A DNA stretch of 63,913 bases, the filler included, from Reclinomonas americana ATCC 50394 (Eukaryota), in the NCBI GenBank assembly GCA_048213135.1. It is 13 parts of 13 records of this genome, joined end to end, with 100 filler letters (N's around TTAATTAATTAA, not from the genome) between each part and the next. Parts side by side here need not be neighbours in the genome. Positions count along the whole stretch, not along the records: positions 55,507 to 58,605 come from AFZH01017827.1; positions 58,706 to 59,898 come from AFZH01017828.1; positions 59,999 to 62,512 come from AFZH01017829.1; 10 more parts are not named here. One strand, 5' to 3'. The position numbers and the translations under genes were made by a program. How positions within the stretch are numbered: the first letter of the stretch is position 1; the number at the start of each line of letters is the position of its first letter. Positions 57,143 to 60,815 of the stretch are shown in pieces. A model generated the notes under the pieces. The model worked only from the letters and a program-made list of their open reading frames with translations. It was not told the origin of the DNA and ran no database searches.

Positions 57143-60100
57143 TCAGATTTCGGCCACCTTGACGGCGTCCGCCATGGCCTTGGCGTCCTTGACGGCCTTC
57201 AGGCGATTGCGCTCCTCGTATCTGGGGAGTGGGGAAGGGAGTGAGAGAGGGGGAAAGGTGGAGAGAGGGAGGGAAGGAGAGAGAAAGGCAGAGTTGAACT
57301 TGTGGTGGCTCGAGGAGACAGAATGACAGCGATTGTGTGCAACAGGGAAAGGTAGCGCCACAGTTTGCAAACAAGCTAGCAAGAAGGGAGACGAGAGGAA
57401 TGAAGGAGGAGCGGAGAGACAGGGGCAAAGTGCGTTAACGTTGGACTAATGTTGAAAGGAAGGGGACCACTACACACGAGTTCAGTGCCAAACGGGACAA
57501 GGGAGCGGAGCGGCGAGTATTACATCAGACGGTGCCGGAGCGTGCAACAAAAGGCAACAAGAAGGAGAGCGAGAGGAATGAAGAAGAAAGTGGAAAGCAG
57601 GAAAGGAATGAGCAGCAATGGATAAAGGATAACATCGGTGCAACGATGAAAACAAAAGAGGGCGGTGGCTGAACGCAACAGCTCGCGATGGCGGACCACA
57701 CGATCGATGATGGATTGCACGGTGAGGTGTGGGAAATCGCTTTGCACGCGCACGTAGATGCTGCGTGACTTGGCCACCTGTGTTCGCCCCCAAATCAGTT
57801 TCCAATCAAAGCAACTGGCAACAAAATCTCCGCTTCTCACTCAACAGCGTACGGGCTCAGGCCAGGAATCGGTGCCTCAATCACAGAGCCTTGGAACACC
57901 TTGGCAATGTTCAGCGACGTGATCATCTCCTCCGAGAGCACGTATGGCGAGCCAATGATGACTTCGTCGACGTACTGCGCGGGCGCGTTCAGAACGTGAG
58001 CGCACAAGGTGAGAGCAGTCACTCCTAACCTTGCAGGCCAGCACACTGAGTACACGCTCGTGCACATTCATGATCGGGTAGTTGCTGCCGCGGTGCTTGT
58101 TGACCACCTGCACAAGCACGAAATGAGCGCGGTGTGGTGCAATGAGCGGGCACCCATCGCAGGCTGCGCAACATCGTCGCTGTGCACGCCGACAATCAAA
58201 AAGTCGCACTGGGCGCGGCACTTTTTCAGGAACGAAATGTGGCCGGCGTCTGGATGTGTAGAGTGAGCACGACAACTCCATCTGATTTATGTGCACAGAA
58301 AAGGCACGCAACGGAACAAGTCAAAGCTGCCGTCTGTGTAGCCAATGACGTCGGTGTCCTTCGGCACGCGGTTGCTGCTGAATTGGATGATCTTGCGGCT
58401 GGTGGTGAGGAACTTGACGTTGGTCTTCGGGTCGAGGTTGGAGGGGCCCTGTGAAATGGAAAAGGAAAAGAGAAGGGGGGAGAGGAGAGGGAGGGAGGGA
58501 GGGAGAAGAGAGGGAAGGGAAGGAGAGGGAGGGAGAAGTGAGGGAAGAGATAGAGAGAGAGAGAGAGAGAGAGAGAGAGAGAGAGAGAGAGAGAAGTAGG
58601 TAACGNNNNNNNNNNNNNNNNNNNNNNNNNNNNNNNNNNNNNNNNNNNNTTAATTAATTAANNNNNNNNNNNNNNNNNNNNNNNNNNNNNNNNNNNNNNN
58701 NNNNNGAGAGAGAGAGAGAGAACGAGTGAGAGCCAAGGACACTGACAGAGAGAAATAGTGGGGGGAAATGATGTTCAGCAAGATGGAGCACCGACAACGT
58801 AAGAGCAATACACTCGTCAAGAAAGAGAGAAGCAGAAGCGTAGCACGGAGGCAGAGAGAGCTAGTAACACATCAGGAGGATTCTGAGAGAAACAGGAAAA
58901 CACAGCACATGACACCACCTGTCTCCTCCCTCAATATCCCTTCCCTTCTCTCCTGTCTCACTCTGTCCCTGTCCCTGTCTCTCTTCGCTCTTCTCCTCCC
59001 CTCCTCTCTCTCTCTCCCTTCTCCCTTAACGCACCGTGCTCAATTCGTGAATCTTCGACTCGTCAATATCGCGATCAGTGTGGTGCTCCTTGGTCATCAG
59101 CAGCATGCGTCCGACCAGATCTGTCGTGCTCACACCTTCCGTGCGCTTGATGATCCTGTTCGCCACAGATTAGCATTCATCAATCGCCCCCGAAACAAGA
59201 GATCAGGCGCAACTTGAATCGACCCTGCGCCTTGGCCGCGGCGTACACGTCATTGCCGTCCTGATCCACCGCAACATCCTCGCCGTGCACGATAAAGTCA
59301 ATGTTCAGCTCGTCAATCATCCGCATGTCGGGGGCGTAGGGGACGTCCTTGACCATCTCGTCCACCCACTTGCAGCCTTCGACGGCGGTGTAACTGGGAG
59401 AGGGGGAGTGAGGGGGAAGGGGAGTGAGGGGGAAGGGAGACGGAAGATGATAAGGAAGAAGGACGGGTGGGGACAAAAAGAGAGGAGAACGACAGTGCTA
59501 AGGCGGAGCGCCCTGTCGACGATTGACGGGTGGCACGAGTGAGCAGAAAAGCTGCGGAGATACGAGCGAAAGAGCCGAGAGATAGAGATGTGGTGAAAGA
59601 GAGCGAGACCAAGGAAGCGCCCAGCACGGGGGAGACAGAGACTGAAGCAAGCGGGGTGACAGAGCAATGCCGGAGACAAGAAGCTGCAGAGGTTCGAGTC
59701 AGTGAACGCTCTGATGTGGTTGACAAGATTGCGAGACACGAGAGCGAGAGAGGAGCAAGGCAAGCTGCAGAATCAAGTCAATAATCGCCCTTCCTAAGGT
59801 CACAACGAATGCGAGACATGAGAGAAAGATGCAGATGCAAGGAGAGAGAGAGAGAGAGAGAGAGAGAGAGAGAGAGAGAGCTGACGAACGGCCGAGACNN
59901 NNNNNNNNNNNNNNNNNNNNNNNNNNNNNNNNNNNNNNNNNNTTAATTAATTAANNNNNNNNNNNNNNNNNNNNNNNNNNNNNNNNNNNNNNNNNNNNGA
60001 GAGAGAGAGAGAGAGAGAGAAGCTGCAAAGGCCCGAGACAGACGGAGAAAAAAGAGACAAAGAGAGATACAGATGCATGGAGAATGTGAGAAGACCCGAG

Positions 60101-60815
60101 AGAGGCAGAGAGAAGAGACAGCAAGGAGATGACAGAAGCTGCAGAGGCCCGAGAGAGACAGATGCATGGACAACAGCTGCATGGAGAGTGAGAGAAGCTG
60201 CAAAGGTCCGAGACAGAGAAGAGACAACAAGTGAAGACAGCTGAGATCGCCCCGACAATACATCGAGAATATTCCACAATGCATCTTCGCTGCCTTTCCG
60301 TCGAGTCTCACACTCACCGCTCCTCCGTGTTCATCACCGGCAACACTCCCTTCGCACGATACACCTCCTCATCAGTCGACACACCCACCACACTCACATC
60401 GCACAACATCTTGGCCTGTCGCAGTGCATTGGCATGACCATACTAACAAACAAACAAACAAAGAGAGTGAGAAAGGCGAGCGAGAGGCAGAGAGGCGCAT
60501 AGTGTCGCGCAACATGCTGTGTGTATGTGAGGGAGAGAGACAGTGAGTGACACGTGAGCGGAGATGACGACATGGCACACGCGCACCATCAGGTCGTACA
60601 CTCCGTCTGACCAGGCGCGAATTGGCTTCTTGCTGCGCTTGTGCTGTGGTTCGTCGACTGACTCGCCATGGCCGTTTGCTGTGTGTATGTGAGTGTACAC
60701 GTGTGTGTGTGTATCGACGTTCGTGTGGCACGCAACAGCCGCTGCCTGAGGCGCCGGTCTCGTCCTCCTCCATCTCCTCCTCGCGAGGTCGTCGAGTGCC
60801 CGCGCTCTCCGCCAT
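57143..60815 (-). CDS. PCYT2: Ethanolamine-phosphate cytidylyltransferase with two tandem cytidylyltransferase domains
   Basis: DGVYDLM[H][84 protein letters not shown]. The gene spans two gaps in the correct order. Confidence 0.95.

Follow-up and report, generated by a model that had tools for sequence, protein, structure and literature searches.

The predicted introns of Reclinomonas americana ATCC 50394 (GenBank assembly GCA_048213135.1) fall into two main classes by their 5′ splice sites (donors), and the second class matches an unusual gene for U1 small nuclear RNA (snRNA). The starting material was a stretch of 63,913 nucleotides (nt), hereafter the window, in which 13 parts of 13 records of this genome are joined end to end; the original prediction held that GTTGCG and GTTGAG donors, seen in a PCYT2-like gene and elsewhere in the window, form a major class that is used in a shifted U1 register or read by variant U1 or U6 snRNAs. 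We call donors of the form G/GTRNGT class A (the slash marks the exon–intron boundary) and donors with T at +3, G at +6 and no G at +5, with the consensus H/GTTGCGT, class B. The second class is real and is constrained between haplotypes, and from sequence we infer that it is spliced. We consider it likely that two donor codes, each served by a U1 of its own, govern the U2-type GT-AG introns of this organism. The existence of the class is a surprise; the mechanism proposed below is specific, testable and unproven.

All genome-wide counts of donor classes are ab initio predictions. A self-training gene finder was run on 447,201 bases of one haplotype, comprising the window and parts of contigs C27, C14, C479 and C343; it was seeded with exons and intron interiors of the PCYT2-like gene, its initial donor model was GT alone, and it was retrained on the learned classes for a refined set. 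Introns were counted only from predicted genes with at least 450 coding bases and at least three exons. With the GT-only donor model, GTTGCG began 144 of 1019 donors where 7.1 were expected, which bears out the claim that the hexamer exceeds a position-independent expectation, and only four of these sites followed G. The background frequency was approximately 0.6% (81 of 13897 exonic GT sites and 35 of 6027 intron-interior GT sites). A two-component donor mixture beat a single component by approximately 1570 units of the Bayesian information criterion and yielded GTTGCGT unprompted; three components were slightly better still, the third being noise-like. After refinement, class B accounted for 249 of 1022 introns (approximately 24%) and class A for approximately 65%. 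The share of class B was 22 to 35% in every piece (window, 33/127; C27, 78/345; C14, 115/475; C479, 12/44; C343, 11/31). Class B was used at 235 of the 340 exons not ending in G vs 14 of the 682 ending in G. Its donors carry C at +5 in 88% of cases, and a GTTGAG minority makes up 13 of 252 T+3 donors after non-G exons.

The assembly (G000) holds two haplotypes that are mostly 88 to 97% alike, and 422 introns were covered in both; with the same parameters, the predictions agreed in place for 384, of which 102 were class B. Class B haplotypes differed at 10 of 525 positions (1.9%) from +3 to +7 vs 131 of 1785 (7.3%) from +9 to +25 (Fisher p 7e-7), with no difference among 105 sites at +3 or among 105 at +6; two sites swap A and G at +4. 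At −2, −1, +4, +5 and +7, the base profile of class B is closer to the class A profile one base further left than to the class A profile at the same position, and position −1 of class B mirrors position −2 of class A (observed/expected: A, 2.2 and 1.8; G, 0.2 and 0.4). The profile also agrees with the human-type consensus for a register shifted by +1, namely, a one-base displacement with U+3 and G+6. In other respects, the two classes are alike: the branch word CT[ACG]A[CT] was found in 189 of 249 class B and 471 of 659 class A introns, and branch distances, intron lengths and acceptor profiles are the same.

The PCYT2-like gene (Table 1) has closest homologues that are approximately 50% identical, and the best solved-structure match of one of its exons is ethanolamine-phosphate cytidylyltransferase (3elb). 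A protein profile was built from 150 matches, reduced to 91 of 300 to 560 residues and then to 79 homologues aligned over more than 280 residues, and every frame-keeping alternative cut within 30 nt was scored against it. Of its 11 introns, six start with GTTGCG, one starts with GTTGAG and four follow G, so that the gene is somewhat enriched in class B (7/11; binomial tail 0.007). At intron 3 (donor at 60513), the best score fell exactly at GTTGCG..AG, every alternative was lower and a one-base slide cost 3.1 bits. Intron 7 (donor at 58312) interrupts the codon for the first His in the second HxGH motif, a residue present in 69 of the 79 homologues; GTTGCG..AG again scored best, slides cost at least 3.6 bits and the one-base slide cost 3.9 bits with loss of the conserved His. 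Across both introns, slid or alternative cuts lost at least 1.5 bits. The original description of all seven donors as protein-constrained does not hold for 60736, which lies in the unconserved N-terminus. At 59213, 58172, 57845 and 57679 (introns 5, 8, 10 and 11), the six best-ranked cuts include no GT/GC..AG pair other than the assigned one, but non-canonical slides reach equal scores. Four class B donors of the gene lie within the alignment to the second haplotype, and all are unchanged from +1 to +7, that of intron 7 being identical. An exon of only 3 nt sits between introns 2 (class A) and 3 (class B); skipping it loses 11.5 bits, and the His that it encodes is present in 60 of the 79 homologues. 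The 12 gaps of the window, such as 58606–58705 and 59899–59998, each consist of a 12-base linker with stops in all frames, flanked by 44 N on either side; introns 4 and 6 are of uncertain length because each holds one of them.

Outside this gene, protein also fixes the cut of the CDC14 intron with its donor at 32873 and its acceptor at 32797, which joins positions 91 and 92 of the Pfam DSPn profile (67–91, then 92–140); the identity of the gene is also backed by CDC14 structure matches. In both PCYT2 and CDC14, class B introns have GT and AG ends, and their removal restores the reading frame. All 14 hexamers listed in the original prediction stand at their coordinates (13 GTTGCG and one GTTGAG; all on the minus strand except 22111, which is on the plus strand) and are compatible with open reading frames. 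The last exon base was, as claimed, never G but T, A or C in all 14.

Table 1. Features of the window discussed in the text; positions count along the window and a slash separates the exon from the intron.
Feature	Position	Strand	Donor	Class	Length (nt)	Remarks
PCYT2-like gene	57142..60815	-				12 exons, 11 introns, open frame of 399 residues
PCYT2 intron 1	60679..60736	-	T/GTTGCGT	B	58	conserved residues do not fix the cut
PCYT2 intron 2	60517..60586	-	G/GTGCGC	A	70	
PCYT2 3-nt exon	60514..60516	-			3	first His of the N-terminal HxGH motif
PCYT2 intron 3	60443..60513	-	T/GTTGCGC	B	71	protein fixes the cut
PCYT2 intron 4	59394..60317	-	G/GTGAGT	A		assembly gap inside
PCYT2 intron 5	59156..59213	-	A/GTTGCGC	B	58	
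PCYT2 intron 6	58449..59034	-	G/GTGCGT	A		assembly gap inside
PCYT2 intron 7	58250..58312	-	C/GTTGCGT	B	63	protein fixes the cut
PCYT2 intron 8	58108..58172	-	T/GTTGCGC	B	65	last exon base C in the other haplotype
PCYT2 intron 9	57975..58029	-	G/GTTAGG	A		G/GTGAGG in the other haplotype
PCYT2 intron 10	57778..57845	-	T/GTTGAGT	B	68	minority form with A+5
PCYT2 intron 11	57222..57679	-	T/GTTGCGT	B	458	
CDC14 intron	32797..32873	-	T/GTTGCGT		77	protein fixes the cut
CDC14 intron	30733..30797	-	A/GTTGCGC			gene-finder prediction
SET-domain gene intron	48923..48996	-	T/GTTGCGT			prediction; upstream exon matches PF00856
Predicted intron	25967..26044	-	A/GTTGCGC			prediction only
Predicted intron	22111..22202	+	T/GTTGCGC			prediction only
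Predicted intron	18885..19325	-	A/GTTGCGT			prediction only
Predicted intron	17854..17923	-	T/GTTGCGT			prediction only; GTTGTGT in the other haplotype

A standard U1 gene was found at C343:5715-5887 and a variant U1 gene on both haplotypes, at G000:C429:9347-9500 and C479:4310-4463. The 5′ arm of the variant, AUACGUAACUU, differs from the conserved U1 arm, ACUUACCUG, at positions 5, 8 and 11, and the two U1s agree in only 101 of 175 aligned columns. The paralog nevertheless retains the four-way junction, stem IV, an Sm-type site and the two loops that bind protein (I and II), and compensatory changes keep the fold, two pairs of helix H being exchanged on both sides. It also has an snRNA-type upstream element. 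The paralog looks like a working gene, one that would be expressed, assembled into a small nuclear ribonucleoprotein (snRNP) and selective in its binding. Searches of this genome for further U1 types found none with a stem-IV pattern (four matches, three of them U1 and one unrelated) or a promoter-anchored pattern (two matches, both the paralog), and with a loop pattern only the three known genes were recognized by eye among 100 listed of 151 matches. A search for the U1C zinc finger gave no match and is uninformative since exons are short.

Two of the three changes in the paralog arm fall where class B needs them. When G+1 is set opposite C9, one base out of the usual register, standard U1 is mismatched at +2 and +5; the changes at position 8 (C to A) and position 5 (U to G) repair the mismatches at U+2 and C+5, and the variant pairs with U+2, U+3, G+4 (by wobble), C+5, G+6 and U+7. 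Duplex energies were calculated between the 11-nt arm and donor positions −3 to +9 with unmodified bases. The mean for class B was −8.2 kcal/mol with the variant vs −1.3 kcal/mol with standard U1, and the variant was better for 239 of 249 donors; for class A, the means were −3.8 and −6.5 kcal/mol, with standard U1 the stronger partner of 565 of 658 donors. Standard U1 in the normal register finds a mean of only 4.3 scattered pairs in class B. The variant arm ranks 24th of 4455 possible three-base variants. The search for U1 genes and the modeling of registers proposed in the original prediction led to an arm that fits the +1 shifted register, and, judging by this complementarity, the paralog is likely to bind class B donors. 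Opposite U1 position 6, G is favored over A in both classes (class A +3, 63% vs 15%; class B +4, 84% vs 2%), and class A has no preference for A at +4 (C, 43%; A, 28%; T, 24%).

We propose that standard U1, in its usual register, reads class A and that class B is read by the U1 paralog, whose 5′ arm would lie one base out of step. In such a duplex, G+1 would take the U1 partner that normally binds G−1, the changes at positions 8 and 5 would make Watson–Crick pairs at U+2 and C+5, and seven contiguous pairs would run from +1 to +7 with a G–U wobble at +4, the cut staying at GT. The paralog would form an snRNP and commit class B donors to splicing, the spliceosome would still cut before G+1, and U2 would read the same branch words in class B as in class A. 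As to origin, xGGTGCG and xGTTGCG are one base apart, and the pair that differs would be the one changed at U1 position 8; through this single-base link, a suppressor-like paralog would give exons not ending in G a strong donor. Catalysis is the least certain step: most likely, standard U6 would engage G+6 and U+7 with one U looped out, or alternatively U6 would tolerate almost no pairing.

Several observations count against this scheme. Both U1 genes score below the gathering score of 69.5 bits for the covariance model RF00003 (variant, 64.0 bits, E 2e-14 over the full length; standard, 63.7 bits). The identity of the variant alleles is weak evidence, as other 100-nt bins nearby are also invariant, and the duplex energies leave pseudouridine and proteins out of account. 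Class B prefers G (84%) to A (2%) at +4, though A would be the best partner for the U of the variant, so complementarity to U1 leaves part of the pattern unexplained. The gene finder made errors: the refined version picked 12 of the 14 listed sites and missed 60513, beside the 3-nt micro-exon that it skipped, and 32873, where it mis-set a CDC14 donor. A pattern scan of metagenome contigs for relatives carrying the variant U1 gave two loci, neither of which matched an RNA family; we treat both as chance, and the one that was read is AT-rich coding-like DNA. Finally, in its normal register, standard U6 finds a pairing partner at +5 or +6 in 0% of class B donors.

With a shift of one base, standard U6 pairs with 100% of class B at +6 and 81% at +7, much as it does with class A at +5 and +6, in a U6 register that we take to be of the yeast style. 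Because class B lacks both G−1 and G+5, either U6 would have to accept a one-base shift at scale or U6atac would have been recruited. The available text of a study of shifted registers states that U6 need not follow a shift of U1 (PMC4856993). U6 itself is present in three identical copies with the standard ACAGAGA box, and U5 has a standard loop 1. A genome search for a variant major U6 found none, with three exact and 33 two-mismatch pattern matches, the latter not examined individually. Of the original alternatives, a routine shifted register or variant U1 or U6, the evidence favors a combination: the register is the +1 shifted one, the likely reader is the U1 paralog rather than standard U1, whose computed pairing is poor, and the altered U6-type gene that was found is U6atac.

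U6atac occurs on both haplotypes (C392:96657-96788, 37.8 bits; C1225:15887-16016, 34.9 bits; RF00619 threshold 33), with the AGC triad, the oligo-U end, an upstream element and the internal stem-loop, in which, as in the 5′ stem, compensatory changes are seen. Its AAGGAGA box is replaced by ACCGAGA at positions 12–18, where C13/C14 stand for A/G and G15 and A16 are kept. The internal stem-loop has C at the bulged position, and the helix-I segment is matched by a U12 candidate, which has GAUC in common with U2. Genome scans, in one of which the pattern spacing barely reached the known copy, revealed no second, canonical U6atac, and genome searches for a complementary U4atac found none (a candidate at C93/C3360 was not significant). 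Textbook minor introns are present: their patterns gave 105 matches vs three in controls, roughly 50 loci over the two haplotypes. Because these introns keep CC at +5/+6 (the G+6 version of the pattern is not intron-like), U11 is canonical and the U12 candidate is canonical-looking (26.5 bits, under threshold), the change in U6atac is ill-suited to them. With no canonical copy found, the altered U6atac probably serves these textbook minor introns, some 50 or more in number. Nearly all listed AT-AC introns use the branch CCTTGAC rather than CCTTAAC; one at C27 is only apparent, as it lies inside a predicted GT-AG intron.

This altered box raises the possibility of a hybrid spliceosome in which the variant U1 marks class B and hands it to a remodeled U6atac that binds C+5 and G+6 in its normal register, the branch being left to U2. 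That account, which we think unlikely, departs from the two-U1 scheme only at catalysis, and U6atac would act beyond ATATCCTT/GTATCCTT introns. The altered U6atac pairs unshifted with 94% of class B at +5 and 100% at +6, where U6 pairs with none; in human suppressor assays, as far as the available part of the report goes, G14/G15 of U6atac pair with C6/C5 of the donor (PMC4980772); and the misfit between the box and the minor introns of this genome would find a reason. Its helix-I segment can also pair with U2 (−7.0 kcal/mol), though not above shuffles. However, C13 predicts G+7, which is seen in only 2% of class B, the 3′ half of U6atac favors the U12 candidate (z −2.3) over U2 (z ~0) as a pairing partner, and no canonical U6atac was found that would free the altered copy. 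A single matching base is weak evidence: drift has touched six of the seven positions between 8 and 14, so the C at position 14 could be a coincidence with a chance of one in three. A third splicing pathway of this kind, running from the U1 paralog to a reprogrammed U6atac with U2 (possibly the second type) at an ordinary branch, is in our judgment doubtful; if it were true, a hybrid between the major spliceosome and the minor one would remove approximately a quarter of all introns. The genome has two divergent U2 types with the same branch-pairing sequence (C14:162841-163039 and C409/C371; 114 and ~85 bits).

The other explanations are less probable than the hybrid. Standard U1 might read class B in a shifted or bulged register with the help of proteins, the paralog being a pseudogene or having another job. 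Such registers are established for standard U1 in human cells, according to the accessible text of PMC4856993, and the GTTGAG minority fits standard U1 nearly as well as the variant (57845, −3.5 vs −4.4 kcal/mol). The prevalent C+5 is, however, mismatched with standard U1 but complementary to the paralog, the mean energy of standard U1 on class B is poor as given above, and the paralog has kept its structure and promoter element despite approximately 40% divergence, so we regard this account as improbable. A cut one base later (G/TTGCG, giving an intron that starts with TT) would suit a paralog resembling a suppressor of a G+1-to-U change in the normal register, and at 82 of the 249 class B junctions the following exon begins with G, which would permit a slide. 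The remaining 167 could not, and the slides at 60513 and 58312 carry the costs described above. An artefact of annotation or of a mixed assembly fares no better: of the 79 genes with at least five introns, 72 contain both classes, and both occur beside both U1 loci, which rules out a mixture of two organisms as the cause. We hold a later cut or an artefact to be very improbable. That class B represents a mobile element (introner) whose copies share a fixed 5′ end is barely credible. The motif is indeed strongly fixed from +1 to +7, but it carries no information beyond +8, class B is spread evenly over genes (chi-square P 0.14), and similar intron pairs numbered two among 240 class B vs six among 240 class A introns. 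Pairing between intron ends showed no notable excess (−5.6 vs −5.0 kcal/mol, standard deviation 2.9), and junction repeats were shorter. A recent introner family was rejected on the lack of intron–intron similarity, paired ends and junction repeats. The notion that class B introns are transformed minor introns was dropped on the branch sites and the separate textbook minor introns; class B lacks the U12-type donor RTATCCTT, and its introns had the branch CCTTRAC in 0 of 249 cases.

The upstream element shared by the snRNA genes, CCAYAA, lies 61 to 71 nt upstream in nine of ten snRNA flanks tested, including both alleles of the variant U1, and the chance of its stricter 7-base form in a 15-nt window is 8e-4. 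U11 has the element too; the flank of standard U1 is written as N and stands outside this comparison. In the available text on Dictyostelium snRNA genes, an upstream element [AT]CCCA[AT]AA is placed at about −63 (PMC3188802), and the element found here resembles it. Downstream of both U1s, U2, U5 and the U12 candidate, a shared motif, approximately TGGA followed by GAAA..GAA, was seen by eye and is likely to be the 3′ box. The promoter-anchored search also turned up tandem repeats of ~340 nt, each with CCCACAA, at G000:C8194 and at C8485, C8575, C8576 and C8659. Nine GTTAC/GTAAC words, five of them GTTACG, cluster 600 to 1200 nt upstream of the variant U1 on both haplotypes (L014:3090-3695, L012:3117-3717); GTTACG, which occurs elsewhere at ~0.04 per kb, is the exact complement of the variant U1 arm, and the cluster may possibly be a transcription-factor site or serve self-regulation. 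In run X1 (guessed DNA), one 137-nt contig contained 94 nt of the variant U1 body (L014:4332-4425) with one difference; it has none of the 2.4-kb flank and stops short of the 5′ arm, and it was left out of the evidence.

Among RNA–RNA contacts in eukaryotes, that of the U1 arm with the donor consensus belongs to the most conserved. A paralog that matches the motif of approximately a quarter of the predicted introns position by position, beside a standard U1 with its own class, would amount to a natural suppressor experiment. In this lineage, gene prediction based on only one donor model will produce wrong annotations, and genes of this kind will escape U1 searches that insist on the standard arm. 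Like U12-type introns, class B appears to pair a parallel snRNA with a parallel donor motif that has C+5, T+7 and no requirement for G−1, but it has neither the donor nor the branch word of that type. A literature search, with most subscription papers out of reach, found no U1 paralog matched to a large out-of-register donor class and no such change in the U6atac box. Human donors in a +1 shifted register were reportedly described by Roca and Krainer in 2009. In the available text of later papers, they are atypical sites read by standard U1 (PMC4856993, PMC9311317). Class B resembles them in U1 pairs displaced by one, U+3, G+6 and a cut at GT and differs in comprising approximately a quarter of predicted introns, in the dominance of C+5 and in a separate U1 gene that removes the mismatches. 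Major introns also divide into U5-favored and U6-favored donor classes, both with one U1 in the portion of the report available (PMC11732430); here, too, the donor consensus splits by the exon-end signal, but class B, lacking both G−1 and G+5, does not fall into either of them when read in the normal register.

Standard and altered U1 genes have been found together in other genomes. The accessible sections describe a standard and a modified U1 in Physarum polycephalum (bioRxiv 10.1101/2022.06.08.495308) and a second U1 in the diplonemid S. specki, where both U1s complement the same consensus comparably (PMC12621601); in these sections, no separate donor class is assigned to the altered gene. 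The available text of the former calls the splicing of an intron class of their own by natural U1 variants unproven. It also reports the U1 arms AACAAAC in Entamoeba and ACGUAC in Mastigamoeba balamuthi, matched to atypical donor consensuses (Roy and Bowser, bioRxiv 10.1101/2022.06.08.495308). As in those species, a U1 arm here complements an atypical donor, and the U5-to-G change is the same as that in Mastigamoeba. There, as far as that text goes, the register is normal and one U1 type per species serves the main consensus, whereas R. americana appears to have two U1 types, each with its own donor class, one of which adds the C8-to-A change and would pair out of register.

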